IMG/VR virus record: IMGVR_UViG_3300045988_105143
Span: 1-64,000 of that record
Length of the DNA: 64,000 bases
Source of the DNA: a virus
Reading direction: 5' to 3' (one strand)
Below, piece after piece: positions 6,959 to 34,045 of this stretch. The notes below the pieces were generated by a model. The model was not told the DNA's origin. It made no database searches and was given only the letters and a program-made list of their open reading frames with translations. The translations under genes and the position numbers were made by a program. Position 1 is the stretch's first letter. The number at the start of each line of letters is the position of its first letter.

Positions 6959-9900
6959 ATGCCTACTTTAGGTCAACTATATGGTAACGACTATTTCCGT
7001 GTTGCCTATGGTCCTCAATATAACGCTTATAAATATAAGCAAGCATTAGACCAGTCAGGTTACATCCCAAATGAAAATGATGGGCTTATTGATAGCTTTC
7101 AATCTGGTTTTGCTGGGTCTATGGGTGGGCTATTCGGCGAAGTTGCTGGTTGGTCTAAGGAGAACGGTTACGACTGGGTAAATAATAATGCAACATGGGC
7201 GGCAAACAAAATGGGTGATATTGCCGCTCGTAATGCTTATACTGGGACTCAAGATAGCGATGGCATCATGTGGTATGGTGCTAACCAAGCCGCATCAGCT
7301 CTAGGTTCATCTGTACCTAGTATCGCCGCAGATGTAGCCGCTACAGCCGCTATGGATGCAGCTATTGGTACTGTTGTAGGTCCTGAAGGTACAGCCGCTG
7401 GTGCTATCGTAGGTGCGGTAAGTGGTGTAGGTAAAGGCTTATATAATTTATATAAAGGAACTCGTGCACTACAATACGCTGGTAAAGCCGCTAAAACGGC
7501 TGGTGCTATTGCCGCTGGTGGTCTCATCGAAAACGCATCTAACGCTGGTGATACATACATGACTGGTTTAAGTCGTGGTATGAGTCATGAAGATGCATGG
7601 AATGCTAGTAATGAAGCCTTAGATGAAGGTTGGGCTCCTGCTGTTATTAACTATGCATCTGACCGTGCTATGTTAGGACGTGGCATGAAAGGTATTTCTG
7701 GTGCTATGGCAGTTGGTGCTGGTGGTAAAGTATTAGCTAAAACTGCTGGGGCATGGGCTGGTAATGCTATGATTGGTGCCGCTGGTGAAGGTTTAACCGA
7801 AGCATGGCAAACACAAATTCAAGAACAAGCACTAGGTAATGAGGCATATGCTAATACACATATCTATGACCCATTCACATGGACTCAAGATATGAAAGAC
7901 CAAGCATACGATGCCGCTATCGGTTCAGCTATGCTAGGTGGTATTACTGGTGGAGTACAATCAGCACGTGGGTATTTAGCTAATAGAGCAAATACAAATG
8001 TCAATGCTGATACTGTAGATACAAACATTCAACCTCAAGTACAGCCACAAGAAGATATCCAATCCCAACCAGTTGTTGGTGAAATCGAAGATTTATCTGC
8101 TGTTGGAGCTATGCCAAACGACAGTATAGACTTAGGCAGTGTTACACCAGAAGCATTCGTACAACCAGAACGTGGGGACTTTGATAACGTATTTGAAACT
8201 ATGGGCAAACGATTTGCTCGTGGCAAATATACTAATGACGAAATCGACGCTAAAGCTCAAGCAGTTCAAGATACTGTAGCTCGTATTAATGACCTTTGGG
8301 ATAATCAAATTGACGAAAATAAAGCTCCAGCTACTCTTCGAGCTAACGACTTTATGGAAGATTTTGTAAATGCTGGTTTGACTCCTAAAGAAGCACATGA
8401 AGCTTCTAAAGAAACTGTTAAGGCATTACAAGCAAAATCTCCAAAACAAGATACATCTATACCTGGTTCTGAATTAATCAGACGTGCAGAATCCGTTGGA
8501 TTAAATCTAACAGACGCCCAAAAGAATGATTTACTATCTGAAAATCCTATTCGTTCAAACTATAATGCTGTAGCTGACGCTATAGAAGATAAGACTGTAG
8601 AAAATCAACGTAAAAATGCGGAATTAAATAGACGTAGAGCTGATACACGACGTCGTAATACATATTCTACTAGATATGATGATTCCATTAATAAACCTTT
8701 CCTAGATAAAACTCTAGGTAAGAAAAAATCAGAAGAAACTGGTTATCGTATTCACAATGCGATGAAACAACGTAAAGAGGATATTAAATCTGGTAAGAGA
8801 ACTAAGTCATTAGAAAAATACCTTGCTGACGCTGGTATTAATAATAATAACTACTCAAAAGAAGAAATGAATAATATTAAAGCTCATATTAAGTCCATTG
8901 ATGATGGTATTAGAAACCGTGGATACAATAAAGAAGAGCTTAAAAAACTTAGCAAAGAAAATGTAGACGTGCAGAAAGCTAACGCTACATACGCAGAAGC
9001 TACACGTAAATATGACGCTAAGGACCCTCGTAATTCTGCTAAAATCGAGCAAATTAATAATATGATTGCCGATAGTATTATAGACCAAGGTAAACGTGGT
9101 AAACCTATTTACCGTTACGATAAATATAAAGAATTTAAAAACAAAAACCGTAAATTATATAATCGTATCAATGAAGCTGTGTATGGGAATAAAAAAGAAG
9201 AACAAACTATTGCCAAACAAAATACCGAAGCTCCTAAAACTGTTAAGGTTCAATATATTAAACCAAAATATAAAAAAGGTAGTTTAAGCGATAAAATAGC
9301 TAAAAACCCAGATAAAGCTGAAGAAATTAAAGCTAAGGCTTTGTCTAAAATAGAGCCAACTATACAAAAAGAAAAGGCTGTAAAGGAAAAACCTACTGGA
9401 CCTATCCCATATGAAGATAGACATAAAGGGTTTAATAACCTAACAAATGAACAATTAGATGCTCGTAGAGCTGATAGAGAACAACGTGCTATTAAATTAA
9501 AATCGTTACAACTACAAAAGTCAGAAAGTACTGATACAGCGTCATCAAAATATCAAGGTCAACCAGCACCTAAGTTTAACAAAGATGGTTCTCGTGCTAA
9601 AGTAATTGAGCCAACTGAAACAGTAAAGCCTGTAGTAGAAGAGACTCAACATGCAGAACCTAAAACAGAAGTAAAACAAACTCCTGTAAAAAATACAAAA
9701 AAAGCAGAACCTAAAGAGGCTCAAAAATCTAGTAAGCAAGACGAAGTAAACGTACTTGCTAAAGCAGTTATGGTTGGAAAAATCAAACCTAAACAAGCCA
9801 GAGATATTCTAAATCAATTGTCTAAAGAAGCAACTGACAAAGAAAAAGAAAAATACCAAAAACTTAGTGAAAAAATTAAATATAACACTAATAATAAAGG

Positions 9901-12900
9901 TGAGTTAATTAGTCGTGACCGTAGTGATGAGGGTCGTGAACGAGATGCTCAAATCCTTAGAGATAGATTAGATAAATTCAAAACACGTCTTTCTAAAGAA
10001 AGAATGTCTGACTCTGAATATAATGCTGAAGTGAAATCTATCGAACATCAAATTGAGAGATTCCGCAATACACACTTTGTTGAGGAAAGCAACTATAAAT
10101 TTACTATACCTAAAAATAAAGTAGAAAGCAGACGTGAATTCCTTAAAAAACACGAGAACAAAGAGGTAGTACACCCACAATACTTATCTCTAGCTTTACT
10201 TCGTAATAATTATGATTTAGATAGTGGTTTAAAACGCTGGATTGCTAAAGAAATTGGCTCTGAGTCTAACTTTGAAGATGGTGAACGCTCTCGTCATATT
10301 AAAGCAATGCTTATACATGAATACGAACATATGATTGACATGTATGATAGTGAAGAAAATGCTTTAAAAGAAAAGCCTATGTTAGTTAAAAACCTAGCAT
10401 CAGCTATCGCTGGTTCTTTCCCTAAAGAATCATTTGGTACTGAAGGTAATAAAGTTAGAAATAGACGTAATGAATTAATGTTCGGCGGTACAAAAGCACT
10501 TACCCCATTTAAGTTTAAAGAGCGTGATACTCTAATTAACTTCGCTAAGAAATATTTTTCTGGCGAACTTGAAGGTAAAAAGAAAGAAGTTAAACGTGAA
10601 GTAAAAGTTGATAATCGCAAAAACAATGGTAAAGAAATTGTTTATGATGTTGTAAGCGATAGCGTAAAACCTCTTGGTGGAGGTCAATTCAAGTTTAAAG
10701 CCAAAATAAACAACGACAACGAAGAAAGTTTTAACGAGTATTTACAAGAAGTTGGTATTGGTGAACCTGAAAATATTGTTAAAAAAGATGGGTATGTAGA
10801 ATTCACATCTGATATCTATCTAAGCTATTTAACATTTACAGATATTACTGATAGTACAAAAAGTAAAACTGGTAAGGTTAATGTCAACATTTACAAAGCT
10901 AGGGGAGACTTAATTAAAGCAATCCTAGCGGATAATGACACTGGTTCTTTTGCTATGTGGCTTAAATACTCATACGAAAAAAAGGGTAACGAAGGTTACG
11001 ACATGGCTACTAAAAAGAAAAATGTTAAAAAGCGTCTAGCTGAATTGACTGGTGAAAGTTATAGTTCCGCAGAATATGACGATGGTGCTACTTTATTCTA
11101 TCCAAGTAAGGTTGAAGAGGTAGAAGCCGAGGATAGTATTCCAGATTATGGTATCTATCAATTAGGTTCTGAAGAAGATTTTAACGCACCTACATCTAAA
11201 AATTATAACACATTCAAACTAGCCGATGAATCACAAGAATTAACCTTACACAAAGGTCTCGAAAATAGACTTGGGGATGCTTATAATGATGTTAAAGAAT
11301 ATCTAACTAATGGAAAAGATATTACTATCCAAGTAACTAAAAAAGGTACTGTGCCAATGTACATGCCTAAGACAGATACAATCTATTTACCAGAAGATAG
11401 AATTAATGTTACCAGTACATCATTCCAACATGAATTAATCCACTCTGCCTTGCGAGATGTTTTGCTAAATCAAAAATCATCAGAGGGCGCTATTAAATTT
11501 GCTGTAGATATGGCTAATTACATCAAGGGAGAAATCAATGCTTACAAACAAAGTAATCGAGCAGACTCTAATACAAATGAAATGCCCGAAAAACCAACTT
11601 CAACCAATGAAGGAGAAACTAGCTCAATTCAAGGACAAACAGGAAATGACTCCACTACAGGTAGCAATACAAGTAGCAAAAGTGTGTCTAATGGAAGTAG
11701 CACAGAAGGACTTCAATTCAACAGTCAAAAGTTGGAAGACTCTAGCGTGGGAGAAAGTGGTCAACGGAGAGAGTCTCAACCACAAGAACAAACAATTCAA
11801 GACAATTCCAGAAATCAAAGCATGGTTCAAGGAAAGGATTCCACGCTCCGACGCAAAATGGGGGACGAAAAACTTCTTCGAGAATGGAACCTTGCAGAAG
11901 AACGCCTAAACACTATAACAGAAGATACTCTATTTGAAGATAGTGTTGGTTTAAAAGATGCAGTAGAAGACATTATTACAGACCCAGTAATGAATGTAGA
12001 AGATAAGAGTAACAAACTTTTACCTCTACTTTGGACAGCAAACGAGATTGATAAAAAATTTGGATTAGATGAACGTGATAGTTTATTACGAGCAATCTAT
12101 ACAGACAAACTTATCAACCTTGAAGAAACTATGGCATATACTCTACAAAATGATTTGTCTCCTGCACATACAAGTGCATTATTTAGAACTGCTACACGTA
12201 TACTACAAAATAAAAGAAAAGAAGATGTATCAACAAATACATATAACCAAACTGGTACTGAAACTCACCAACCAAATATCATGGAAAGAGCTGTAGGTTC
12301 TCTCAATACACTGATTAATGAGTTTAATAAGAAACACGACAACATAGAATTTGAAGCACGTGATGCCAAAGAAGGTAATATCTCTGGTTATGATATTAAA
12401 AAATGGTTAGCTTCACCAACTAAGTTTATTGAAAAATATATTCCTCAAATGAAACCTATTATCTATTGGGCAGAAGAAACGGCTGTTAAACAAAACAAGT
12501 TACAGAAAAATTTCATCAAAGCGTTAGATAAAATTAAAACTAACTTAGGCGAGGAAAATATTCATCAATTCAATAAATTAGCAAAAGAAGTTACTGACTT
12601 AGGTCGTGAATTTGTACAACCAGCTAGTGTAATGTTAAAAGATAAAGAGTTATATATTAACTTAAAACATGACGATATATTCAGAGAATTTAAAGATGAA
12701 ATCGACGCCAAAAATCTTTACAGCGAATTAAAGAAAGCTGGTAAGAATGTATTTATGGACTATAAAGATGGAAACTTCCGAGTATTTGGTAGCGACCATA
12801 CACTACGTACATTTAATACATTTGACGAAGCTGAAAAAGCCGCTCAACCATTACGTGACAGTATAATGAAGTCTAAGGGATATAATTCTAAAGTTGTTAA

Positions 12901-15274
12901 AGCATATAATGACTGGAGAAAGCTAGATAATAAAGTATTTGAATTATCTGTTAAAGCATGGAGAAACGCTGGTGCTGACCCTGACTACAAGCCTAGACGA
13001 CTATGGGCTCACATTCCTATGCTTCATAGCAAATATGGAGTGTATATAGTTAAAGATAACGTAGACGAAGACGGTAACCAATACGAACAACGTGAGAAAA
13101 TCGCTTCCTTCCATACATACAGAGATGCAGAAAACTGGGTAAAAAAAGAACAAATCAATGGAGATGCTCGTGTAGTAATTACAGAACGTAATCCAAAATA
13201 TGACGAGTATAATGCAGGCTCAGATGTATACGATGGTGCGAATGAATCAGCATATGACGATATCGTATATGAAGGCGAAAGCCGTGAATCTCAAGAGAAA
13301 CGCTTTGCTCGTATATCACACTCTTACCCAGAAGTTTCCAAAATCATTAATGAATTTATAGGCGATAAAGAACACGTAACACGTGAAAAACTTATGGATT
13401 TAATTAATGATAAAGATAAACAAAAAGATTTAGATATTAATCCAAAAGCCCTAAAAGATGAACTAAAATTTGCTAATCTTGATGAGTTATTCCGTAGACG
13501 TAATGTAATTACTAGACAAGACATGATTGCCCATCTGTTAATTGGATACGGTAATCAAAAGAAAGATAAATATAACAATACAAGAATGAATGCTAAAGGT
13601 GCCAACCCTAATACATTTGAAAATATGGAAAACTATTTAAGATATAAAGCAAACTTTATACCAGCTCAAGAGTTTTATCATAAAGCAACCGCACTTTACC
13701 GAGATAAAATAGGGACAGATTATGCATCCCAATTTGGTATTGGTGGTGAAGGTGCTAGACGTGATGTAGAAGACGTATTGCATAAGTTTATATCTAGTGT
13801 AGTAGGTGTTCCTAATACATTTGACAAAGCTATCAATAGAACATTCAACGAACTTGTTGGTGATGGTTGGATTAAACAACAATACGGAGATACTTTTGCT
13901 ACAGACCTAATGAACCGTAGTATGGAAGCTGTATCAATAGCAAAACTAGGTTTATTTAGACCTACTGCCGCTATTGCTCAGTTAGGTGCTTTACTAAATA
14001 TTGGCACAAAAGCTGGTTATGGTAAAGACTTCCAAAAAGCATTGCGTGATGCTACTACTCATGGTAAAGTTGGAGCTCATATCACATTCTCTGAACAAAA
14101 AATGTTCAACCGTATAGGTCTTAATCTAGAAGATACTGCGTTAGAAACACAGTCTTTGAAAAATAGAAAAAGTCTATATAACCTTAAAGTTGGTAAGGTT
14201 AAATTAGGTAAAGCATTTGAAAAGTCTATGGATATGTTCAATAGAACTGACAAGTATACACGTCGTGTAGCCGCTCTTATTGCTTATAGAAAAGCTATTA
14301 GTGATGGTAAATCACAAACAGAAGCAGAACATATTGCATCTGATTTTGTAAGAGAAACTAACTTTAACTACAATGATAGAGATGCATCTCAATTATTTAC
14401 GAAGTTTGGTACTCTTGGTAAATTAGTGTTGCAATTTAAGAAATATCCAGTTAAAGAACTTGAATTTATGACAAGTGTTATTAAAGGTGGAAACAAGAAA
14501 GAAATTGCTCGTTTCTTTGGTTCTTATATCGCAATGGCTGGTCTTATGGGCGTACCTGGTATGACAGCCGCAGATACTGTAGCAGAATGGATTAGTAATA
14601 AATCTATTTCTCACAGAATCAAAGAATCATTAATGGAATGGGCAGATGGAGACGACACCAAGAAAAAACTAGCATTATTAGTTATGTATGGTTCTCCAGC
14701 ACCCACACTTGGCGTTGACTTTAGCCGTAATATTGGTATTGGTGACTTAATTCCTACAGATAGTTTAGCTGGTCCTACATTTGGTACATTAGCTAACTTA
14801 ATAGAATCATTTAAGAATGATAATTCTTCGAATGGTATGCTATTGTCTATGGGACATGATTTATCACCTGCCTTTGCTAACTACTATCAGGCAATTACTG
14901 GTCACAAGCAAGACTGGAAAAAAGGTGTACAAGGTAGAGAATATAGTGATAAAGAACGTATTCTTAAAGGTATTGGTTTCAGACCTATACTTGATGCGGT
15001 TGATGCTGATGTTAGCCAAATTAACTATATCAATTCACAAGAATCTAAAAACCGCAAAAAAGCATTAATATACCAATATATTAATGACCCTAGTTCTGTA
15101 TCTGTAGAAGACCTAAAAGCAAATAATATTACTAAGAAAAATATCGCAGACGCCAAGAAAAACATAGGTTCTTCATCTATTGAAAAGGCAAAAAGATATA
15201 GTTCGAAAGCAGATAGAATTAAAAACGCTGATAAGTTTGATAATATGAGCGAGTTTGAAGAGGACCTCGATTAA
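6959..15274 (+). CDS. giant (2771 aa) virion/ejection polyvalent protein with two HEXXH motifs
   Basis: Uninterrupted 8.3-kb ORF directly after the SLT gene. The N-terminal ~340 aa are Gly/Ala-rich, glycine-zipper-like hydrophobic segments, followed by K/E-rich low-complexity sequence. HEYEH at 10316-10330 and HELIH at 11429-11443, then an S/T/N/Q linker and a hydrophobic C-terminal domain. Confidence 0.8.
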   Translation: MPTLGQLYGNDYFRVAYGPQYNAYKYKQALDQSGYIPNENDGLIDSFQSGFAGSMGGLFGEVAGWSKENGYDWVNNNATWAANKMGDIAARNAYTGTQDSDGIMWYGANQAASALGSSVPSIAADVAATAAMDAAIGTVVGPEGTAAGAIVGAVSGVGKGLYNLYKGTRALQYAGKAAKTAGAIAAGGLIENASNAGDTYMTGLSRGMSHEDAWNASNEALDEGWAPAVINYASDRAMLGRGMKGISGAMAVGAGGKVLAKTAGAWAGNAMIGAAGEGLTEAWQTQIQEQALGNEAYANTHIYDPFTWTQDMKDQAYDAAIGSAMLGGITGGVQSARGYLANRANTNVNADTVDTNIQPQVQPQEDIQSQPVVGEIEDLSAVGAMPNDSIDLGSVTPEAFVQPERGDFDNVFETMGKRFARGKYTNDEIDAKAQAVQDTVARINDLWDNQIDENKAPATLRANDFMEDFVNAGLTPKEAHEASKETVKALQAKSPKQDTSIPGSELIRRAESVGLNLTDAQKNDLLSENPIRSNYNAVADAIEDKTVENQRKNAELNRRRADTRRRNTYSTRYDDSINKPFLDKTLGKKKSEETGYRIHNAMKQRKEDIKSGKRTKSLEKYLADAGINNNNYSKEEMNNIKAHIKSIDDGIRNRGYNKEELKKLSKENVDVQKANATYAEATRKYDAKDPRNSAKIEQINNMIADSIIDQGKRGKPIYRYDKYKEFKNKNRKLYNRINEAVYGNKKEEQTIAKQNTEAPKTVKVQYIKPKYKKGSLSDKIAKNPDKAEEIKAKALSKIEPTIQKEKAVKEKPTGPIPYEDRHKGFNNLTNEQLDARRADREQRAIKLKSLQLQKSESTDTASSKYQGQPAPKFNKDGSRAKVIEPTETVKPVVEETQHAEPKTEVKQTPVKNTKKAEPKEAQKSSKQDEVNVLAKAVMVGKIKPKQARDILNQLSKEATDKEKEKYQKLSEKIKYNTNNKGELISRDRSDEGRERDAQILRDRLDKFKTRLSKERMSDSEYNAEVKSIEHQIERFRNTHFVEESNYKFTIPKNKVESRREFLKKHENKEVVHPQYLSLALLRNNYDLDSGLKRWIAKEIGSESNFEDGERSRHIKAMLIHEYEHMIDMYDSEENALKEKPMLVKNLASAIAGSFPKESFGTEGNKVRNRRNELMFGGTKALTPFKFKERDTLINFAKKYFSGELEGKKKEVKREVKVDNRKNNGKEIVYDVVSDSVKPLGGGQFKFKAKINNDNEESFNEYLQEVGIGEPENIVKKDGYVEFTSDIYLSYLTFTDITDSTKSKTGKVNVNIYKARGDLIKAILADNDTGSFAMWLKYSYEKKGNEGYDMATKKKNVKKRLAELTGESYSSAEYDDGATLFYPSKVEEVEAEDSIPDYGIYQLGSEEDFNAPTSKNYNTFKLADESQELTLHKGLENRLGDAYNDVKEYLTNGKDITIQVTKKGTVPMYMPKTDTIYLPEDRINVTSTSFQHELIHSALRDVLLNQKSSEGAIKFAVDMANYIKGEINAYKQSNRADSNTNEMPEKPTSTNEGETSSIQGQTGNDSTTGSNTSSKSVSNGSSTEGLQFNSQKLEDSSVGESGQRRESQPQEQTIQDNSRNQSMVQGKDSTLRRKMGDEKLLREWNLAEERLNTITEDTLFEDSVGLKDAVEDIITDPVMNVEDKSNKLLPLLWTANEIDKKFGLDERDSLLRAIYTDKLINLEETMAYTLQNDLSPAHTSALFRTATRILQNKRKEDVSTNTYNQTGTETHQPNIMERAVGSLNTLINEFNKKHDNIEFEARDAKEGNISGYDIKKWLASPTKFIEKYIPQMKPIIYWAEETAVKQNKLQKNFIKALDKIKTNLGEENIHQFNKLAKEVTDLGREFVQPASVMLKDKELYINLKHDDIFREFKDEIDAKNLYSELKKAGKNVFMDYKDGNFRVFGSDHTLRTFNTFDEAEKAAQPLRDSIMKSKGYNSKVVKAYNDWRKLDNKVFELSVKAWRNAGADPDYKPRRLWAHIPMLHSKYGVYIVKDNVDEDGNQYEQREKIASFHTYRDAENWVKKEQINGDARVVITERNPKYDEYNAGSDVYDGANESAYDDIVYEGESRESQEKRFARISHSYPEVSKIINEFIGDKEHVTREKLMDLINDKDKQKDLDINPKALKDELKFANLDELFRRRNVITRQDMIAHLLIGYGNQKKDKYNNTRMNAKGANPNTFENMENYLRYKANFIPAQEFYHKATALYRDKIGTDYASQFGIGGEGARRDVEDVLHKFISSVVGVPNTFDKAINRTFNELVGDGWIKQQYGDTFATDLMNRSMEAVSIAKLGLFRPTAAIAQLGALLNIGTKAGYGKDFQKALRDATTHGKVGAHITFSEQKMFNRIGLNLEDTALETQSLKNRKSLYNLKVGKVKLGKAFEKSMDMFNRTDKYTRRVAALIAYRKAISDGKSQTEAEHIASDFVRETNFNYNDRDASQLFTKFGTLGKLVLQFKKYPVKELEFMTSVIKGGNKKEIARFFGSYIAMAGLMGVPGMTAADTVAEWISNKSISHRIKESLMEWADGDDTKKKLALLVMYGSPAPTLGVDFSRNIGIGDLIPTDSLAGPTFGTLANLIESFKNDNSSNGMLLSMGHDLSPAFANYYQAITGHKQDWKKGVQGREYSDKERILKGIGFRPILDAVDADVSQINYINSQESKNRKKALIYQYINDPSSVSVEDLKANNITKKNIADAKKNIGSSSIEKAKRYSSKADRIKNADKFDNMSEFEEDLD

Positions 15275-15304: not shown

Positions 15305-15835
15305 ATGATTTATTCACTTAATGATATTGAATATATGGCAAGTAAATGTAATGCACAAAGCATTACGCTCCATTGGGGAGCAAATTGGTATGATAATACC
15401 TCTGAACATTATCATATTAACATCCTTGGAGATGGAACAATCTATTCAGACTATGATAATCTTGATGTTACTTGTAGCCACACTTGGCACAGGAATACTG
15501 GTAATATTGGTATTTCTTTATCTTGTATGGGTGACGGTAGCATTTGGGCTGATGGTACTATCCAATGGGGTTCGGCACCTCCAACAGATGCTCAAGTTGA
15601 TAAAATGGCGATGGTTGTAAACGCTATTTGTAAAGCCAAAGGTTGGGATATTAATTATGACCGTGTAAAGACTCATGCAGAATGGGCTGATATCGATGGA
15701 TACGGCATCCATGATAATGACCCAGATATGCGTTGGGACTTACTAGCTATTCCGCAAGAAGCTGGAGACGGAGGTGACATTCTACGTGGTAAAGCAATTT
15801 ATTTCCAACATCACCCAGAATTATGTAAAGACTAA
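15305..15835 (+). CDS. N-acetylmuramoyl-L-alanine amidase (Amidase_2/PGRP-type) endolysin
   Basis: YHINILGDGTIY, SHTWHRNTGNIGISL and PPTDAQVDKM...VKTHAEW match the amidase_2 pattern (Zn ligands His/His). AGGAGG RBS. Confidence 0.7.
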   Translation: MIYSLNDIEYMASKCNAQSITLHWGANWYDNTSEHYHINILGDGTIYSDYDNLDVTCSHTWHRNTGNIGISLSCMGDGSIWADGTIQWGSAPPTDAQVDKMAMVVNAICKAKGWDINYDRVKTHAEWADIDGYGIHDNDPDMRWDLLAIPQEAGDGGDILRGKAIYFQHHPELCKD

Positions 15836-16376
15836 TATAAGACTAATCGGTTTTGTATTTATTCTTTTAATTGCGATATTTGCCCTGTATGGTGGTTATA
15901 AATTATTCCATAGGGAAACTATCGAGGAACATATTAAAACGCCTCCTATGGGCAAAATAACGAATTTTATGGGTACTCAAAACACCAAGACAACAGTTGG
16001 ATATGTAAAAAAAGAATTTATTAATGGGATTAAAGAAGATACTGATGTCGAGGCAAATATAGAGCAGCCTAAAGTCACAGTTAAAGTTAATGGTAAAAAA
16101 CAACAATTTGACTTGAAGCAAACAGAAACAAAAAAATTTGAAGATGGTAAGGTTGTGGTAGACCAAAAATCAGAAGTTACATTTGATGTAAAGGTTCCAG
16201 ACCGCCATGAATTAAATGTATATGCTCAAGAAGAATTCCGTGCAGGCAAATTTCATCATCAAGTAGGTGTAGAAAAGGAAAATGGTAAATTTGTATATGG
16301 GGCAAAATATGACTTTGTAGACAAAGAACCTTTCTACTATGCACGCTATAACCTTGTAAAGATGTACACAAATTAA
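15774..16376 (+). CDS. membrane-anchored protein (start uncertain)
   Basis: The ORF overlaps the amidase 3' end. One N-terminal TM (LIGFVFILLIAIFALYGGY) and then a soluble K/E-rich domain. Followed by a strong terminator. Confidence 0.55.
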   Translation: MTFYVVKQFISNITQNYVKTNIRLIGFVFILLIAIFALYGGYKLFHRETIEEHIKTPPMGKITNFMGTQNTKTTVGYVKKEFINGIKEDTDVEANIEQPKVTVKVNGKKQQFDLKQTETKKFEDGKVVVDQKSEVTFDVKVPDRHELNVYAQEEFRAGKFHHQVGVEKENGKFVYGAKYDFVDKEPFYYARYNLVKMYTN

Positions 16377-16377: not shown

Positions 16378-16404
16378 GGGGACGATATGTCCCCTCTTTT
16401 TTTT
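16378..16404 (+). terminator. rho-independent terminator
   Basis: GGGGAC (16378-16383) GATAT GTCCCC (16389-16394) followed by TCTTTTTTTT. Confidence 0.85.
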
Positions 16405-16446
16405 ATGCCCATTTTAAAACTTCATCAAATCTTCACAAAAAAGTAT

Positions 16447-16475
16447 TTGACAACCGAAAAATTTTATGGTATAAT
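16447..16475 (+). promoter_or_regulatory. consensus sigma-A/sigma-70 promoter P1
   Basis: TTGACA 16447-16452, 17-nt spacer, TGg extended -10, TATAAT 16470-16475. Preceded by CTTCATCAAATCTTCACAAAA. Confidence 0.8.
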
Positions 16476-16525
16476 ATGAATATACAATATTAGAAAACTT
16501 CATCGAAATTTCATCAAATTTTCAC

Positions 16526-16554
16526 TTGACAAACCATTTTCGTTATGGTATAAT
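16526..16554 (+). promoter_or_regulatory. consensus promoter P2 (tandem with P1)
   Basis: TTGACA 16526-16531, 17-nt spacer, TGg, TATAAT 16549-16554. Preceded by CTTCATCGAAATTTCATCAAATTTTCAC. Confidence 0.8.
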
Positions 16555-16586
16555 ACAGACAAGGAAAAGTGAAATGAGGTGACAAA

Positions 16587-16793
16587 ATGTCAAGAAGAAA
16601 ATACAAAATCAACAAAAACACTGGAGTTCATTTAGTAACTCATACTAGACAAACTGAAAAAATTGAGGTATGCTCAGTATGTAAGTTTGGAGAATTAACA
16701 AAAAATAATAAAGAAGTATTTTGCATTAAAAAGGGTATATTCAAGCCGTGCAAGTCTTCTCGTATATTAAAATGCTTTGTTCACAAGCAATAA
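16587..16793 (+). CDS. small basic Cys-rich protein (possible zinc ribbon)
   Basis: 68-aa ORF with GAGGTG RBS, the first gene after P1/P2. Cys pattern CSVC...C...C...C. Confidence 0.55.
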   Translation: MSRRKYKINKNTGVHLVTHTRQTEKIEVCSVCKFGELTKNNKEVFCIKKGIFKPCKSSRILKCFVHKQ

Positions 16794-16794
16794 A

Positions 16795-17200
16795 TAAGTG
16801 AACCTCGAACCTATCTTGGAATACGGCATAGCGTTACTTCCGAACGGCAAACCAAGGCACTACGAAGTAAACGTATGATAGGTAAGAGTAAAGAAAACGC
16901 ACTAATCAAGCGTAGCATATGGTGGCATACAATTATGCAAACATCGAGGTCCTGGTAAAACCGATGTAAAAGAAATAACAGCACCCGTTTAGCGAGCGTG
17001 GTGATAGGCGTTATAGGCTCGGCGGTACAGCTACCTCGATTCCTTAGTTCCCCGTCCTGGCGTGGCAACGATGAGAGCCTATGTGATAAGGCACCAGATA
17101 AAGACAGACCGAGGCTGGTTCGCTTGAAGCGAGAATCATCGTAAGGTGCACAAACACCAAGCCCCCGAACATGGGGGCAGTGCACCCAGACAGAGATTAA
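16795..17200 (+). ncRNA. candidate large structured non-coding RNA (family not recognised)
   Basis: No credible ORF and clearly more GC-rich than the flanks. Multiple nested complementary segments (see finding). No terminator between P1/P2 and this region. Strand is inferred from promoter orientation. Confidence 0.4.
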
Positions 17201-17557
17201 AAGATATTATATAAAGTAAATAAAAAAATACACGAAGTGTTTCATGAACGAAGTGAATGAACAATAACAACTACTCACAAACAAAGTTTGTTCGTATTCT
17301 CGTTACGAGCTAAAGCTCTACTCGAAGTATTTCTTTATAAGTTAAAAATTAGATTATCAACATTAGTTGATAATAAGTGAACCAAATACGTCAATAAGTG
17401 TTTGGTGAACGTAATCCTCGCAAACAAGTTTGCTACGTATCACTAATTTAGATAATCTACTTTTACCTAAATTATATCATTAGTATTAAATAAGAACAAA
17501 TATTAATTACGAAGTCTTTAGACAAAGTAATTATGTGAACGAAGTGAGCAAAAGAAC

Positions 17558-17586
17558 TTGACATATAAAAGCAAATGTGGTATAAT
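17558..17586 (+). promoter_or_regulatory. consensus promoter P3
   Basis: TTGACA 17558-17563, 17-nt spacer, TGg, TATAAT 17581-17586. Confidence 0.8.
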
Positions 17587-17607
17587 ACAGTTATCAGGAG
17601 GTGAAAG

Positions 17608-17835
17608 ATGTATAATCTAACTTTAAAATTCAATTTAAAAAGCAATAAAACAGCAATTTTACATTCCCAATTAAAAAGTATGGCTGATATTACATCTGAA
17701 GTTAAATATGTGATAGCCTGCATTAACGCAAAGAAAACTATTTGGACATGCGGAACTAGCATTGATACTAATATTATCAAATCATTCGAATGGGAATATG
17801 AAGAAGACATGTTTAAGGAGAATAAAAAGGAGTAA
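17608..17835 (+). CDS. hypothetical early protein
   Basis: 75-aa ORF with AGGAGGTG RBS, 22 nt after P3. Confidence 0.6.
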   Translation: MYNLTLKFNLKSNKTAILHSQLKSMADITSEVKYVIACINAKKTIWTCGTSIDTNIIKSFEWEYEEDMFKENKKE

Positions 17836-18063: not shown

Positions 18064-19191
18064 ATGAATTTCTGTGATTTACATAGCCATAGCGACTACT
18101 CAATATTTGATGGGTTCGCCACTATAGATGATAAGATAAAAAGAGCAAAAGAGTTGGGTTATACAGCATTAGCTATGACAGAGCATGGGACAACCACTGG
18201 ACTAATGGAATTCTATCTAAAATGCAATAATGCAGGCATTAAACCAATACTAGGTTATGAGGGATATTTAAGTTTAGAACCAGATGTACAAGGAGGAGAA
18301 ACATATCACATACTTCTTCTATGTAAGGATTTAACTGGTTACCGCAACCTTATGAAAATAGCTACATATGCTTCTGAACATTTCTATCGAAAACCACGAT
18401 TAGGTTTTGAAATCCTTAACGAATGCAAAGAAGGTATTATTTGTAGTACAGCTTGTATTGCTGGTGTTTTAAGTTCTGAAAGACCAGACAATATGATTTA
18501 TGACCTGCATAAAATATTTGGTGATGATTTCTACTTAGAGGTCCAACCACACAAGTTTAAGGAACAATATGAATACAATAATATGGTATTTGACCTAAGT
18601 GAGAAATACAATATTCCTGTAATTATCACTGGCGATAGCCACTATGTAATGCCAGAAGATGCAAGTACTCATAGATTATGGTTAAGTTTAGCGGAAGATA
18701 GCGAATACTATGGTAGTGGTGATTACCATATGATGAGTAAGTCAGAAATGGCTGAGTTCTTTAAATTCAATACAGATGAATACTTCCAAAATGTATCTGA
18801 CATTATAGGTAAATGTAATGTTGAAATTCCTATGGGTGGAGAAAACTTCCCTAAATTTGACACACCAGACCCTCTTAGATTTATAAAGGATAAATGTAAC
18901 GAAGGTTGGAAGAGATTAGGTATACAAAACAAGCCTAATTGGAGGCAATATAAAGAACAGGCTATGCACGAATTCGAAGTATTAGATAAATGCCATTACA
19001 CAAATTATATGTGCATTATTTATGATATGTTAGAATTCTGTAGAAATAACAGTATCCCAATTGGTCCTGGTCGTGGGTCAGTAGGTGGCTCTCTAGTAGC
19101 ATACCTTATGGGTATTACAGAAGTAGACCCTATTAGATTTAACCTTGTATTTGAACGATTTGCCAATCCAGAACGTGTCACATTGCCAGAT
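18064..19191 (+). CDS. dnaE: DNA polymerase III alpha subunit, exon 1 (PHP domain to FERFANPERVTLPD)
   Basis: DLHSHSDYSIFDG PHP motif, GPGRGSVGGSLVAYLMGIT and FERFANPERV..PD. The conserved PDID motif is broken after codon 376, and the frame stops 2 codons later. Confidence 0.9.
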
Positions 19192-19949
19192 AAACAATAA
19201 AATGTCGAGCTATATAGAAATATATAGTGTTAAGCCTCGTGAACCTTATAGCAAAAAGGGTGTGCCGAAAGGTGCTAACGGTGAAACTCCTTATAGGACA
19301 ACACCGTGCTAAGAATTCACAGTCACGGATTGGAGGTTTACATGAAAAATGTAAAAGGATATGAAGGGCTGTATGCTATCACAACAAACGGTGACGTATG
19401 GAGTTATAAGTCAAATAAGTTTTTATCTACATTTGCAGGTAAAACTTCAAATTATTTGCAAGTAAAATTAACTAAGAACGGCGTAAGGAAACATCATCTA
19501 GTTCATCGTTTAGTTGCTTTAACTTACATTGATAATCCAGATAATTTACCTGAAGTTGACCATATTGATAACGACATACTTAATAACAATGTTAGTAATC
19601 TAAGATGGATAACCAGAAAAGGTAATTTATATAAGTCTTATAACACGATGGGACCGACTAGGAACCATAGGGTATGTTATGTATATAAGGACAATAAATT
19701 TATTGGGTTATTTAACTCTGTTTTAGAAGCGGCTAGATTTTGTGCAGAAGAATTTGGTTTATCTAAATCTTCTTTAGCAAAATATAGAAAAGTTAAAAAT
19801 GTTAAAATAGTGGCTGTGAATTAAAGTGTAACGACTAGCCCAAAGGGGCGTAGGGTGGGTATTGCTCCATTCGAAGTGCGAGGGACCTAAGTCATTTATG
19901 ATATGGTTAAGAGATAGTCTACTCCTTATGGTAACATAAGGTATTAAGG
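19192..19949 (+). mobile_element. group-I-type self-splicing intron carrying a homing endonuclease
   Basis: 758 nt inserted exactly inside the conserved ..NPERV(S/T)xPD|IDxD.. motif. The last exon-1 base is T and the last insert base is G. The downstream frame is open only from 19935 and has no start before conserved residues. GC-rich structured flanks surround an HNH ORF. Confidence 0.7.
19342..19824 (+). CDS. HNH homing endonuclease (NUMOD4 + HNH_3 type)
   Basis: GGAGG RBS then ATG 19342. YEGLYAITTNGDVWS (NUMOD4-like). HHLVHRLVALTYI...VDHIDNDILNNNVSNLRWITRKGN (HNH). Confidence 0.8.
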   Translation: MKNVKGYEGLYAITTNGDVWSYKSNKFLSTFAGKTSNYLQVKLTKNGVRKHHLVHRLVALTYIDNPDNLPEVDHIDNDILNNNVSNLRWITRKGNLYKSYNTMGPTRNHRVCYVYKDNKFIGLFNSVLEAARFCAEEFGLSKSSLAKYRKVKNVKIVAVN

Positions 19950-21689
19950 ATCGACTGCGACGTCTCTTCAGATAGACGAGGCGAGGTTATTGAATACATT
20001 AGACAAAAATATGGTACTGTTCATCAGATTAGAACTATTAGCTACATGCAACCTAAATCATCTGTTCAAAGGGCTGGTAAAGCATTGGGGTATGAACCAT
20101 CTGCTATAGATGAAATTTCAACTAAGATACAAACGTTAGATGAAGTAAAAGACGATAAGCTTAGAGAATTGGCTAAAAAATTCGATGGGCATATTGAAAA
20201 ATATAGCGTTCACGCATCCGCCGTTGTCGTGTTCCCTAAAGATGTCTCAAATTGGTGTGCTATTGAAAAGAGTAAAGACTCATTCTCAGCGGCACAAGAC
20301 TTCCACTTATTAGAAAAACAGGGAATTATGAAGCTTGATATTCTGGGATTAAAGAACTTAGATATTATAGATTGGACTATTAAACAAGTAGGTAAAGATA
20401 ACTTATCTATTAGAGATATTCCATATCAAGATGACTATACATCACGTATGTTAAGAGCTGGCTTTACAGAAGGGTGTTTCCAAATAGAATCTAAAGGTAT
20501 GACCGATATTATTAAGGCTATTAATACTTCTAAAGTAGAAGACCTTATCGATACAGTTGCTTTACATAGACCAGGACCACTAGATTCTGGTATGGTAGAG
20601 GTATTTGAGCGACGTAGGCAGGGCATAGAGCCAGTTACATATCTACACCCTAAGCTAGAACCAATTCTGAAGGATACAGAGGGTATTATTTTATACCAAG
20701 AACAAATTCTACAGATTGCTCGTGAGTTGTGTGGGTATACATATGGTGAAGCCGATAATCTTAGACGTATTATTGGTAGAAAAATTGTTGATGAAATGCA
20801 ACCAGCTATAGATGAGATGGCGAAGAAGGGTTTAGAAAATGGAATTCCTAAAGAAATTATGCAAGAGATATGCGACGAGATTATCACTTTTGCTAATTAT
20901 GGATTTAACAAAGGTCATTCTGCGGCGTATGGGCTTCTTGCGTGGTATACGGCGTATTTAAAAGCTCATTATACACCGGAGTATATGGCATCATTGATAG
21001 AAATGGCTTCAAGAGATACTCAATCTCGTGATAAGTTGGTGTTCTTTATAGAACACTGTAAAAGAATTAACGTGAATGTTTCAAAGCCAGATTTATTAAG
21101 AGGAAGTATGCAATGTACCACTAATGGCAGAACTGTTGTTATGGGTTTTAATACCATTGCTGGTGTTGGTCGCATTGAAATAGAACCGTCCAATAATGCT
21201 TTACAATTCTTAGAAAATAATTTACACTTAAATAAAACGATGCTTAAAAACATTATCAAGTCAGGTGCTTGTGATGATTATACAGATAAAACTAGGTGGG
21301 AATTATTAGAATATGTCGATTGGTTAAAGGATAAGCGTAAATCAAAAGGCGAGTTTAAATACTCTGGCGAACAGGAACAGTCATATGGAGAGATGGAATA
21401 TGATGTTTTACGTTACACATTCACTGATATATTTAAAGAATACGATACGAGCATAGTAGATGGAAGTACAAATGTTATAGCATTGGTTACTAAAACCAAG
21501 GCACATAGAACAAAAAAAGGTAAACCTATGGGCTTTATAGAAATATATACACCTAGTAAAGGTGCTATTAAGGCTGTAATGTTTGAGCCAAAATTTGAAC
21601 TACTCAATAAAGGTCAAGTGTATATCATGAGAATGGATAATACAGTAATACAAGATTTCATTGTCGCTAAAAAAACATTTGACAAATAA
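19950..21689 (+). CDS. dnaE: DNA polymerase III alpha subunit, exon 2
   Basis: Begins IDCDVSSDRRGEVIEYIRQKYG, the continuation of the PDIDxDF..RR..V..Y...KYG motif. Also ALHRPGP, YQEQ and FNKGHSAAY. In frame with the listed ORF 20046-21689. Confidence 0.9.
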   Translation: MDCDVSSDRRGEVIEYIRQKYGTVHQIRTISYMQPKSSVQRAGKALGYEPSAIDEISTKIQTLDEVKDDKLRELAKKFDGHIEKYSVHASAVVVFPKDVSNWCAIEKSKDSFSAAQDFHLLEKQGIMKLDILGLKNLDIIDWTIKQVGKDNLSIRDIPYQDDYTSRMLRAGFTEGCFQIESKGMTDIIKAINTSKVEDLIDTVALHRPGPLDSGMVEVFERRRQGIEPVTYLHPKLEPILKDTEGIILYQEQILQIARELCGYTYGEADNLRRIIGRKIVDEMQPAIDEMAKKGLENGIPKEIMQEICDEIITFANYGFNKGHSAAYGLLAWYTAYLKAHYTPEYMASLIEMASRDTQSRDKLVFFIEHCKRINVNVSKPDLLRGSMQCTTNGRTVVMGFNTIAGVGRIEIEPSNNALQFLENNLHLNKTMLKNIIKSGACDDYTDKTRWELLEYVDWLKDKRKSKGEFKYSGEQEQSYGEMEYDVLRYTFTDIFKEYDTSIVDGSTNVIALVTKTKAHRTKKGKPMGFIEIYTPSKGAIKAVMFEPKFELLNKGQVYIMRMDNTVIQDFIVAKKTFDK

Positions 21690-31835: not shown

Positions 31836-32501
31836 ATGAACAAAGAAACAATGACAATTAGAAAAGCACTAACACAAAAGAAAGTACTAGATAAACAAAT
31901 TGCAGAATTATCTTCTACTAAATTTGTAGCTATTGCGACCTCTAACCGTACAGTTATTGACGGTATGAAACAAAAGGACTGGGTGGTAGACGCTCAGGCA
32001 CGTTTTCAGTCTCTTAATGATAAGCTAAAGAGACGTGAAGCTATCACTAATGCTATTATGAGTGCTAACGCAAATCATACGATTACAGTAAAGAAATTTA
32101 TCGGCATTGATAAGCAATCTGATGAATATGAATCTATCTCTTTTGCGTCTGCTATCGCTCGTAAAAAGTATTTATCTGATTTGCTGGTATCTATTGTCAA
32201 ACGGATGCAAAAAGCAATCCTTGATAACTCCAATGCGTACCAAGCAACGGAACGTCAAATGGATGAAAAAATTACAGAGAGACTATATCAAGAGTTCTCT
32301 GCTGTAACTCAGGCATCAGGTAAGGCTCGTCAAGAAAGAGAGGCAGAGTTACGTGAGCAATACTCAGTCGAGCTTCTTGACCCTAATAAACTAGCGGAAA
32401 ATTTAATGTCTTTCAAGGAATACATTGAAAATTATTTAGCTGAAATTGACTCTATTTTAGGTCATGCAACTGAGGTTACTGAAATCACAGTTGAATATTA
32501 A
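31836..32501 (+). CDS. hypothetical coiled-coil protein, probably highly expressed
   Basis: 221-aa ORF with AGGAGG RBS, behind tandem promoters P7/P8. Confidence 0.65.
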   Translation: MNKETMTIRKALTQKKVLDKQIAELSSTKFVAIATSNRTVIDGMKQKDWVVDAQARFQSLNDKLKRREAITNAIMSANANHTITVKKFIGIDKQSDEYESISFASAIARKKYLSDLLVSIVKRMQKAILDNSNAYQATERQMDEKITERLYQEFSAVTQASGKARQEREAELREQYSVELLDPNKLAENLMSFKEYIENYLAEIDSILGHATEVTEITVEY

Positions 32502-32916: not shown

Positions 32917-32992
32917 GGGTGATTAGCTCAGCTGGGAGAGCACCTGCCTTACAAGCAGGGGGTCGCAAGTTCAAACCTTGCATCGCCCACCA
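32917..32992 (+). tRNA. trnV: tRNA-Val (anticodon TAC)
   Basis: Acceptor GGGTGAT/ATCGCCC, anticodon arm CCTGC-CTTACAA-GCAGG, T arm GCAAG-TTCAAAC-CTTGC, encoded CCA. Confidence 0.85.
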
Positions 32993-32999
32993 TTTACAT

Positions 33000-33089
33000 G
33001 GGTGGTTGACAGAGAGGCTTATTGTATCTCTTTGCTAAAGAGACGTCGTATAAAAGCGACCACAGGTTCGAATCCTGTACCATCCTCCA
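33000..33089 (+). tRNA. trnS: tRNA-Ser (anticodon GCT), long variable arm
   Basis: Acceptor GGGTGGT/ACCATCC, anticodon arm TCTCT-TTGCTAA-AGAGA, long variable arm, T arm ACAGG-TTCGAAT-CCTGT, CCA. Confidence 0.8.
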
Positions 33090-33093
33090 ACAT

Positions 33094-33169
33094 GGCTCGT
33101 TAGTCAAGTGGTTAAGACATCGCTCTTTCACAGCGAGAACGGTGGGTTCAATTCCCCCACGAGTCACCA
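33094..33169 (+). tRNA. trnE: tRNA-Glu (anticodon TTC)
   Basis: Acceptor GGCTCGT/ACGAGTC, anticodon arm TCGCT-CTTTCAC-AGCGA, T loop TTCAATT, CCA. Closely resembles Bacillus-type tRNA-Glu. Confidence 0.85.
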
Positions 33170-33240
33170 TTCGGTACTTATATACTATTGTTAAAGGCTT
33201 GCCATACCATGGGTGTTTTGCTGTATATACCATTCAACAG

Positions 33241-33314
33241 CTATATATTAGTTTACAGGTAAAACAAAGCCCTTGTGGGCGGAGACGGTGGGTTCGATAC
33301 CGACCATATATAGT
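33241..33314 (+). pseudogene. degenerate tRNA-like element
   Basis: All-AT acceptor CTATATA/TATATAG and a T-arm-like GTGGG-TTCGATA-CCGAC with one G-G mismatch. The anticodon region is GCCC-TTGT-GGGC with only a 4-nt loop, and there is no CCA. Confidence 0.3.
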
Positions 33315-33324
33315 GGTGTTATAT

Positions 33325-33399
33325 TCTTGGGTAGTTCAATGGTAGAGCATCTGGCTGTTAACCAGAATGTTGGGGGTTCGAGTCCCTCCCCAAGAGCCA
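33325..33399 (+). tRNA. trnN: tRNA-Asn (anticodon GTT)
   Basis: Acceptor TCTTGGG/CCCAAGA, anticodon arm TCTGG-CTGTTAA-CCAGA, T loop TTCGAGT, CCA. Confidence 0.85.
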
Positions 33400-33400
33400 T

Positions 33401-33486
33401 GTCGTTGTAGTCAAGATGGATAAAGACAACAGACTGTAAATCTGTCGCTTATAGCTTCGGAGGTTCGAATCCTCCCAACGGCACCA
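33401..33486 (+). tRNA. trnY: tRNA-Tyr (anticodon GTA), long variable arm
   Basis: Acceptor GTCGTTG/CAACGGC, anticodon arm ACAGA-CTGTAAA-TCTGT, long variable arm, T loop TTCGAAT, CCA. Confidence 0.8.
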
Positions 33487-33489
33487 CAT

Positions 33490-33567
33490 GGAGACTTAGC
33501 TCAGTAGGTAGAGCAACAGGTTGAAGCCCTGTGTTTAGCATTGGTTCAATTCCAATAGTCTCCACCA
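33490..33567 (+). tRNA. trnF: tRNA-Phe (anticodon GAA)
   Basis: Acceptor GGAGACT/AGTCTCC, D arm GCTC-AGTAGGTA-GAGC, anticodon arm ACAGG-TTGAAGC-CCTGT, 7-nt variable loop, T loop TTCAATT, CCA. Confidence 0.8.
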
Positions 33568-33725
33568 TAAGGTGTAGTCAACCTTAAATCACTTCATCTA
33601 AAATGACTCTAAATCCATTCATTTAATGGTCGGTATTTTGAGTTTGCCGTTAAGAAGATAACGATATACACTGTTTTTCTGAATTTAAAGAACGGATGTA
33701 TTTTGTTTTCTTAACTCATGAACAT

Positions 33726-33815
33726 GGAAAGTTGGCAGAGTCTGGTTTAATGCAACAGTCTTGAAAACTGTCGAGCAGAAATGCTCCGTGGGTTCGAATC
33801 CCACACTTTCCTCCA
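33726..33815 (+). tRNA. trnS: tRNA-Ser (anticodon TGA), long variable arm
   Basis: Acceptor GGAAAGT/ACTTTCC, anticodon arm ACAGT-CTTGAAA-ACTGT, long variable arm, T loop TTCGAAT, CCA. Confidence 0.8.
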
Positions 33816-33890
33816 GAGCCTTGATATTGAATTACGGTTTAATATCGCCTATCGGGTTACTTACGGGTTTCTTGGTAGGATAGGCATGTT

Positions 33891-33964
33891 ATGGGTATAG
33901 TGTAATGGAAACACGTTGGTCTCCAAAACCAAAGATAGAGGTTCGATTCCTCTTACCTGTGCCA
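33891..33964 (+). tRNA. trnW: tRNA-Trp (anticodon CCA)
   Basis: Acceptor ATGGGTA/TACCTGT (two G-U pairs, A1-U72 as in bacterial Trp), anticodon arm TTGGT-CTCCAAA-ACCAA, T loop TTCGATT, G73, CCA. Confidence 0.75.
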
Positions 33965-33968
33965 TATA

Positions 33969-34045
33969 CCCCCTATGATGAAACTGGCAAACATACTGGA
34001 CTTAGAATCCAGGTTCTGTAGGTTCGAGTCCTACTAGGGGTACCA
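33969..34045 (+). tRNA. trnL: tRNA-Leu (anticodon TAG), atypical: short variable loop, C1-U72 mismatch
   Basis: Acceptor CCCCCTA/TAGGGGT, 3-bp D stem with 11-nt loop, anticodon arm CTGGA-CTTAGAA-TCCAG, only a 5-nt variable loop, T arm GTAGG-TTCGAGT-CCTAC, A73, CCA. Confidence 0.6.

Follow-up and report, generated by a model that had tools for sequence, protein, structure and literature searches.

Two catalogued RNA families form one contiguous structured RNA just downstream of the first early promoters of an approximately 66-kb phage

What is the GC-rich, apparently gene-free stretch that lies between the lysis genes and the replication genes of a tailed phage? The question is raised by positions 16795-17200 of a 64,000-nucleotide (nt) piece of viral DNA (positions 1 to 64,000 of IMG/VR record IMGVR_UViG_3300045988_105143, the whole of which is called the window here). 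An earlier interpretation made from the letters alone (the sequence-only reading) had taken this stretch for a large structured RNA of unknown family that was visibly richer in GC than its surroundings. The difference in composition, which had been judged by eye, is borne out by calculation: the GC content of the stretch is 48.5%, as compared with 27.5% and 28.0% in the 400-nt flanks and 36% in the whole window, and it stands at the 99.95th percentile among the window's 406-nt segments, only 0.05% of which are as GC-rich. The identity of the RNA can be given with near certainty: 16770-17186 on the plus strand consists of EGFOA-assoc-1 followed by EGFOA, two RNA families that are already catalogued. 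What is new is their genomic context, their composite architecture, two pseudoknots, and a candidate protein partner.

We scanned the whole window against Rfam 15 at the gathering thresholds and scanned 16400-17650 permissively as well, with E-values up to 10. Two matches exceeded their gathering scores, each of them covering its model from end to end:

16770-17019, plus strand: EGFOA-assoc-1 RNA (RF02970), 293.6 bits (gathering score 224.5), model positions 1-250 of 250 with no insertions or deletions.
17029-17143, plus strand: EGFOA RNA (RF02955), 50.8 bits (gathering score 37.7), model positions 1-108 of 108, E = 6.5e-08.

The EGFOA-assoc-1 match had an E-value of 1.9e-86 in the whole-window scan and 3.6e-88 in the permissive scan, and EGFOA begins 10 nt past its end, a 9-nt linker separating the two. 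The permissive scan returned five other matches, all with E > 2 and all noise from eukaryotic snoRNA, miRNA, and U2 models, and 16400-17650 gave no match to GOLLD, ROOL, raiA, OLE, HEARO, group I-II introns, tmRNA, RNase P, or 6S RNA. The sequence-only reading was therefore correct in setting aside tmRNA, RNase P, 6S RNA, and an intron, whereas GOLLD and ROOL, which it had offered as a precedent, do not supply the identity, and its "unknown family" gives way to the two full-length matches. A new, uncatalogued family of large RNAs could still be argued from the two pseudoknots and the 3'-terminal stretch of approximately 45 nt (17144-17186), none of which are shown in the Rfam matches, and from the copies in two relatives (L012 and L150) that score under the very high gathering score of RF02970. 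Against this stand whole-length matches to both models above curated thresholds, with E-values as low as 3.6e-88 and 6.5e-08, and we regard a new family as highly improbable.

Both families stem from the survey of Weinberg et al. (2017; NAR 45:10811, PMC5737381), the main text of which does not mention EGFOA, and both are classed by the Rfam curators as sRNA genes. EGFOA members have been described as putative small RNAs located in unusually long gene-free regions (bioRxiv 10.64898/2026.07.01.735769), as is the window copy. Cryo-electron microscopy (cryo-EM) of two members in vitro showed a trimer (with a hexamer class) and a strand-swapped dimer; the same preprint, which gives the deposited models as PDB 23NN and 23ND, assigns these RNAs no biological function (bioRxiv 10.64898/2026.07.01.735769). 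The resemblance of the window RNA to EGFOA-assoc-1 is complete in that the entire model is matched without indels, all nine of its helices form, and it lies directly upstream of EGFOA. There is no essential difference, except that the first 24 model positions are here the 3' end of a protein gene. Copies in the divergent L012, L150, and L266 clades stretch the family below its gathering score.

Does the RNA fold as the models predict? Homologues were collected by pattern scans of viral and metagenome contigs followed by an nhmmer filter, and 27 distinct full-length copies were assembled into an alignment (A1). All of them are on contigs of about 64-68 kb or on fragments thereof; where sources are stated, which is the case for a few record names only, they are human oral or Human Microbiome Project samples. 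The aligned copies fall into three clades, with 83-94%, about 60%, and about 56% identity to the window, and a fourth clade (L266) was found later. Rfam matches to both families are present in the relatives L036 and L006, and EGFOA-assoc-1, EGFOA, and the 3' hairpins described below are contiguous in 27 of 27 copies and likewise in L266. A pattern scan of 185,579 bacterial and archaeal genomes yielded no copy, and no prophage copy came to light. Matches in Bacteroides genomes were rejected as chance, as they lie, by eye, inside the end of an apparent glutamine amidotransferase (trpG-type) gene and have no EGFOA-type Rfam match. A scan of viral contigs with an A-rich pattern produced chance matches and no new homologue among the matches listed, and blastn of 16400-17650 against 50,697 GenBank phage records gave no match.

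The structure tested on the alignment comprised the Rfam consensus helices, an inserted hairpin at 17120-17132, and two 3' hairpins, with slid partners as controls. Ninety-six percent of the cells were paired and 38 of the 78 pairs had changes on both sides, as compared with 30-40% and 4-10 such pairs in the slid controls. RNAalifold recovered most of the helices independently, with an energy of -70.7 kcal/mol for the plus strand versus -45.5 kcal/mol for the minus strand; the helix that it proposed between the 5' and 3' ends (UGC 16773-75 with GCA 17182-84) was not adopted, being only 3 base pairs long with one-sided changes. It is the covariation that constitutes the evidence for structure, as the minimum folding energy of the lone sequence is only mildly unusual (z = -1.88). 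Thus, the earlier claim of a structured non-coding RNA on the plus strand is sustained both by the Rfam matches and by compensatory changes among homologues, the very comparison that the sequence-only reading had proposed as a check.

The helices of EGFOA-assoc-1, as mapped from Rfam, are as follows:

16779-84/16798-803, 16804-06/16886-88, 16811-15/16877-81, and 16823-25/16872-74, plus strand: the first four helices.
16834-41/16863-70, plus strand: helix with a conserved 21-nt loop (16842-16862).
16897-900/16910-13, 16925-29/16934-38, 16942-46/16962-66, and 16982-89/16995-17003, plus strand: the last four helices.

These nine (helices 1-9) are 93-100% paired, and seven of them have at least one pair changed on both sides. 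The remainder of the RNA contains the following elements:

17068-74/17136-42, plus strand: closing helix of EGFOA (helix 10), four of seven pairs compensatory.
17077-80/17089-92 and 17093-97/17115-19, plus strand: internal hairpins of EGFOA (helices 11 and 12), every pair compensatory.
17120-24/17128-32, plus strand: extra hairpin inserted in EGFOA, four of five pairs compensatory.
17054-17059 with 17105-17109, plus strand: EGFOA pseudoknot 1, GU(C)CUG with CAGAC in a 17-nt hairpin loop, 88% of cells paired.
17034-17038 with 17110-17114, plus strand: EGFOA pseudoknot 2, 5' tail CCUCG with CGAGG, 100% paired, three of five pairs compensatory.
17144-17186, plus strand: conserved 3' extension outside both Rfam models, as seen in the alignment.
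17145-48/17155-58 and 17161-66/17173-78, plus strand: hairpins of the 3' extension, the second being GCCCCC/GGGGGC, about 90% paired with no compensatory changes.

In helices 10-12 pairing is complete (100%), with compensatory changes at 13 of the 16 pairs. The window copy has the closing helix, the two internal hairpins, and the conserved single-stranded core (CCGUCC...GGCA...AGACC) of the family: where the consensus reads CCGUCcUAG ... GGCA ... GUAAAGCUAGACCUgGG, the window has CCGUCCUGG, GGCA, and AUAAAGACAGACCGAGG. It differs from the model in the inserted hairpin, in the conserved 3' extension, and in the deletion of the first consensus hairpin (model positions approximately 33-46). Because a distant relative (L212) also has no first hairpin and scores 57 bits, we consider its absence to be a variant of the lineage that, by Rfam's criterion, does not affect membership in the family.

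The departures of the core from the consensus are offset by compensatory changes in the two pseudoknots, which together occupy almost all of the 17-nt loop of the 17093-17119 hairpin. In pseudoknot 1, C-G is replaced by G-C in three sequences and G-C by A-U in six, the pairing is also kept in L266, and sliding the partner reduced pairing to 16-39%. Pseudoknot 2, with 100% pairing as compared with 18-58% in slid controls, occurs in three covarying versions (CCUCG/CGAGG, CUCAG/CUGAG, and CCCAG/CUGGG); the loop and tail of the window copy are off consensus yet covary with each other, CCUCG/CGAGG standing in for CCCAG/CUGGG. Downstream, the 3' extension includes a nearly invariant GGGGGCAGUG at 17173-17182 (one column being 90% conserved), and conservation ends after about 17186. 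A similar hairpin, CUUGCUCC/GGGGCAAG, follows EGFOA in L212. The RNA of 16770-17186 is non-coding and folds as the Rfam models predict, with the addition of two pseudoknots that lock the EGFOA core.

Seven helices had previously been drawn by hand, and two of these hold: TCGCT/AGCGA (17120-17132), which is the inserted hairpin with its four compensatory pairs out of five, and GCCCCC/GGGGGC (17161-17178). The rest, including both long-range helices, found no support as drawn. One of the long-range helices paired 16943-16950 with ACCTCGAT at 17033-17040, which instead pairs within EGFOA with CGAGG at 17110-17114 as pseudoknot 2. The other, between 17013-17020 and 17075-17082 (ATAGGCTC/GAGCCTAT), is specific to the window, its G-C pair being confined to 1 of 27 sequences. 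The other 26 have A in place of G17077 (alignment column 320), and their local hairpin is ACCU/AGGU versus GCCU/AGGC, a compensatory change that supports the local hairpin of the Rfam model. For the helix drawn between 16915-16919 and 16934-16938, TATGC at 16934-16938 is indeed a 3' arm, but its partner is GCATA at 16925-16929. CTTGG/CCAAG (16815/16856) is 67% paired and not conserved. Finally, the outer stem GGTGCAC/GTGCACC (17145/17186) keeps its UGCA core but gains no support from compensatory changes, and a local GGUG/CACC hairpin is an equally possible alternative.

Could the region instead code for protein? An antisense frame of 124 codons (16811-17185) is open in the window sequence, and the sequence-only reading had dismissed it as spurious in a region with no credible open reading frame (ORF). 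Stop codons are rare on the minus strand because the plus strand is purine-rich (AT skew). In the homologues the frame is broken or shifted, the longest open frame ranging from 67 to 125 codons and moving from frame to frame. Moreover, no codon periodicity was found in 16811-17185, where variable sites are distributed 36/25/31 over the three phases (p = 0.37), whereas the neighboring 68-codon ORF just upstream, used as a control, has substitutions distributed 18/21/51 by codon phase, an excess at the third position (p = 1.5e-5). A codon-periodic signal, which the sequence-only reading had named as an observation that would speak against an RNA, is therefore absent, and conservation in the region is accounted for by compensatory base-pair changes. 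We consider the probability that this or another frame encodes a protein to be negligible, and the dismissal of the antisense frame stands.

The control ORF is itself of interest, as it adjoins the RNA in a peculiar way:

16587-16793, plus strand: small gene for a basic protein of 68 amino acids (aa), pI about 10, codon-periodic and kept in all clades.

Model positions 1-24 of RF02970 (16770-16793) are the last eight codons of this gene (KCFVHKQ*), and part of the sequence conservation of RF02970 is thus due to the protein. The stop codon lies within the loop of the first hairpin of the RNA (16779-84/16798-803), as it does in every clade, and the arms of that hairpin covary although the 5' arm codes for protein. 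Across the clades the protein is 62-68 aa long with 31-40% identity, of which 17-18 residues are Lys or Arg, and it has invariant cysteines at C29, C32, C46, and C63 together with KE..C and FKP motifs. It had no match in Pfam, PHROGs, NCBIfam, or the sequences of the Protein Data Bank (PDB). Its family comprises 20 clusters among 5.8 billion proteins, all from these phages, and an exhaustive profile search of 1.84 billion proteins returned about six representatives; one candidate representative, P0022, was rejected as a spurious repeat protein. On the basis of its sequence, it is a reasonable inference that the protein binds zinc and nucleic acid. EGFOA-assoc-1 and the small ORF travel together, whereas EGFOA has no fixed gene partner. 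In one relative (L150; BNJS01000698.1, 169 kb, or about 2.5 phage lengths) the small ORF contains several frameshifts in homopolymer runs; this record is probably a concatemer assembled from long reads with indel errors rather than a carrier of a pseudogene.

How is the RNA made? The locus lies in a tailed phage of about 66 kb, between the terminator of the lysis cassette and the replication genes, and its principal landmarks are as follows:

15305-15835, plus strand: endolysin, an amidase, with Amidase_2 and PHROG endolysin matches.
15774-16376, plus strand: holin-like gene of the lysis module.
16378-16394, plus strand: intrinsic terminator that closes the upstream lysis module, stem GGGGAC/GTCCCC followed by eight T.
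16447-16475, plus strand: early promoter P1, a perfect TTGACA-17-TGGTATAAT with the extended -10 TG.
16526-16554, plus strand: early promoter P2, which repeats P1 in tandem with a downstream offset of 79 bp (repeat families D1 and D3).
17558-17586, plus strand: third perfect promoter, P3, at the head of the replication genes, which are small ORFs and then, at 18064, the gene for the alpha subunit of DNA polymerase III (Pol III alpha).

Seven perfect promoters of the form TTGACA-N14-TGGTATAAT are present, all on the plus strand and between 16447 and 31760, where 0.13 would be expected by chance; one more, without the TG, is at 29032 (plus strand). The perfect promoters delimit the early and replication region, and P1 and P2, both of the consensus sigma-A type, are hence the first of the early set. 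No terminator-like site was found on the plus strand between P1/P2 and the RNA, and so the earlier description of two tandem perfect promoters with no terminator before the RNA proved accurate. Inside the RNA there is no promoter-like site above 9/12 and no plus-strand terminator. Past it, up to 33000, there is no convincing plus-strand terminator, the two sites found (27080 and 30761) being weak with 5 pairs. The unit is preceded by tandem promoters in the L036 and L006 clades as well, and this conservation in three clades is what leads us to infer early and strong expression. It is very probable that the RNA is co-transcribed with the small ORF. In the L036 clade, gene callers leave about 900 nt behind the small ORF without a gene, and a canonical terminator closes this gap immediately ahead of the following promoter, which argues for a separate transcription unit.

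The conserved gene order is, on the upstream side, an ORF of 2771 aa, the amidase endolysin, the holin-like gene, the terminator, P1, P2, the small ORF, and the RNA; beyond the RNA it continues with an AT-rich field of 370 bp, P3, small ORFs, Pol III alpha, Erf/Rad52, and a primase-helicase. The polymerase of the window has no more than 38% identity to that of any annotated phage.

This arrangement invites the view that the RNA is a cis-acting leader of the downstream replication operon, working by antitermination, as do HK022 put and the Bacillus EAR element, or controlling the DNA polymerase gene. The RNA closely follows the first early promoters and opens a long run of co-directional genes that has no convincing terminators, and the terminator that lies between the RNA and the next genes in the L036 clade could be read through. 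EGFOA loci in other phages also bear on the matter. A search of viral contigs with a 15-mer from the core yielded only two further loci, L189/L213 and L212, which are too few to generalize about context. In L212, a distant relative with the same synteny, EGFOA occupies part of the approximately 570-nt leader that separates a single promoter from the DNA polymerase gene, and is thus inside the leader of the Pol III alpha gene, with neither EGFOA-assoc-1 nor the small ORF. In L189, an unrelated phage, EGFOA stands by itself in approximately 800 nt of intergenic DNA that precede two long ORFs, which we read as probable genes for the terminase (large subunit) and portal, so that EGFOA there too precedes what is probably an operon. 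On the other side, the replication genes of the window and of L036 have a perfect promoter of their own after the RNA (P3 in the window), and read-through is therefore not needed; the genes downstream vary between loci; the Rfam curators class both families as sRNA genes; and an RNA of 420 nt with 15 helices, two pseudoknots, and oligomers in vitro is far larger than known antitermination RNAs of about 70-120 nt. On balance a cis-acting leader is rather unlikely, and the lack of a fixed gene partner for EGFOA fits action in trans.

A further view takes the RNA together with the DNA that follows it:

17187-17557, no strand assigned: AT-rich non-coding field, 28% GC, about 370 bp, with covarying hairpins.

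The field is probably transcribed together with the RNA. Its stems have compensatory changes (GAGC/GCTC versus GGTC/GACC versus TCACC/GGTGA), and it contains C-GAA-G triloop hairpins, ACACGAAGTGT at 17230-17240 and GAACGAAGTGA at 17246-17256 and 17537-17547. Its folding has no strand asymmetry (-33.0 versus -32.3 kcal/mol). The field is common to the window and the L006 clade, and other sequence takes its place in the L036 and L012 clades. Conceivably, then, the RNA and the field make up a transcription-activated replication origin like the primary origin of T7, oriF and oriG of T4, or RNA II of ColE1, in which a structured transcript started at the strong promoters would run into an AT-rich unwinding region and there prime or open the DNA. 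The layout is suggestive in that tandem strong promoters and a structured RNA are followed by 370 bp of DNA at 28% GC, containing repeats and palindromes, and then by polymerase, Erf, and primase-helicase genes, and hairpins without strand asymmetry may act as DNA. Arguing in the other direction, the GC skew follows gene direction, with no switch at 17 kb and no origin signal, and there is no sign of a site for an RNA-DNA hybrid; the RNA is kept in the clades in which the field is replaced; and EGFOA is also found upstream of a probable terminase gene in another phage. We judge an origin to be very unlikely. It is mainly the L212 arrangement and the AT-rich field that keep the cis-acting leader and the origin alive.

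The triloop hairpins have a wider distribution. Every clade has them in the non-coding DNA that follows the RNA; the C-GAA-G (once GGA) is constant, the stems differ and covary, and examples were seen in L036, L174, L006, L212, and L266; in L212 and L266 one of them lies about 45-50 nt before the start codon of the polymerase gene. One possibility is that they are boxB-type RNA hairpins to which a protein binds, perhaps the small basic protein; another is that they are stable mini-hairpins of DNA. No strand asymmetry was seen in them. The field also contains an inverted repeat of 23 nt (17345-17367/17442-17464, 87% complementary) that encloses two smaller hairpins, and two similar hairpins, CTCACAAACAAAGTTTGT and CTCGCAAACAAGTTTGC, are 143 nt apart.

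Other features of the surrounding genome may be recorded here. The ORF of 2771 aa (6959-15274), a single frame directly upstream of the endolysin gene, is probably, to judge by its position, a tail or tape-measure-like giant protein; its relatives have 2458-2798 aa. The Pol III alpha gene, which in relatives is a single gene of 954-972 aa, is split in the window (18064-19200 and 20046-21689) by an insert with an ORF for an HNH/NUMOD4 endonuclease (19306-19824). A sub-threshold Rfam match to a group I intron covers 19712-19941 (33.3 bits, E = 1.7e-6), and the insert is probably a group I intron with a homing endonuclease. The last two perfect promoters (31640 and 31732) are also in tandem. They precede by about 1.2 kb an array of 12 tRNA genes (32917-34283, plus strand: Val, Ser, Glu, Asn, Tyr, Phe, Ser, Trp, Leu, Gln, Met, Asp), and an ORF of 221 aa (31836-32501) lies in between.

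What, then, might the RNA do? We lean towards an overall picture, the functional part of which we hold with low confidence, in which the composite EGFOA RNA is abundant early in infection, assembles with itself, and acts in trans. The RNA would be made in quantity as soon as infection begins, being the 3' portion of the small gene's mRNA, and would then either be cut down to a stable RNA of about 410 nt or persist as a long 3' untranslated region (UTR). It would act in trans as a self-assembling scaffold, possibly binding the co-encoded zinc-finger-like protein, and such a scaffold may help the phage to take over the host or to set up replication. The functional core of this proposal, a trans-acting oligomeric RNA or ribonucleoprotein, is, taken by itself, a tentative suggestion that we hold to be doubtful. 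A bolder version, in which EGFOA-assoc-1, EGFOA, and the 3' hairpins are domains of one ornate RNA of about 410 nt that forms an oligomeric ribonucleoprotein with the 68-aa protein in the first minutes of infection, is distinctly unlikely.

Several observations count against the picture that we favor. Because no convincing terminator follows up to 33000, processing would be required to yield a discrete RNA. One hairpin of the model is missing from the EGFOA of the window, to which the published oligomer structures may therefore not apply. The arrangement in L212 looks cis-regulatory and, since L212 has EGFOA alone, EGFOA can do without the small protein. The AlphaFold2 model of that protein has a pLDDT of 47, and the link between the small ORF and the RNA could be plain vertical inheritance within one phage lineage.

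Several known systems invite comparison with the window RNA. The prohead RNA (pRNA) of phi29 is a phage RNA that is made from an early promoter and works as a homo-oligomer. The likeness is one of analogy only: the window RNA has no sequence or structure match to pRNA (there being no Rfam hit), no link to packaging genes was seen at the locus, and the phage is unrelated to phi29, having a genome of about 66 kb and a Pol III alpha-type replicase rather than protein-primed replication. HK022 put RNA and lambda N with boxB/nut are processive antitermination systems that act just after early promoters. Like them, the window has a small, very basic early protein that adjoins short GAA-loop hairpins (17230-17240 and others), but there is no homology, the window RNA is several times larger, and the downstream genes have a promoter of their own. 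GOLLD, ROOL, and OLE are large, ornate structured RNAs that form RNA-only homo-oligomers, and GOLLD and ROOL are often phage-borne and located near tRNA genes (Nature 2025, PMC12286853). The window RNA differs from these in being smaller (about 410 nt), in having an unrelated architecture, and in having no match to their Rfam models.

As a discovery of RNA families the finding has little weight, both having been in Rfam since the 2017 survey and the lineage fitting the RF02970 consensus almost perfectly. What is gained is context: orphan RNA families are placed in the first early transcription unit of phages of about 66 kb known from metagenomes of the human mouth and gut, where they make up a single unbroken unit; to this are added a 3' extension, two pseudoknots supported by covariation, and a candidate cysteine-rich protein partner. 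Were the ribonucleoprotein to prove real, it would be an RNA scaffold built by a phage for host takeover, anti-defence, or the organization of replication, and the oligomers that cryo-EM has revealed for EGFOA would for the first time have a biological role and a protein partner. In the meantime, the locus offers concrete handles for working out what these recently solved oligomers do.

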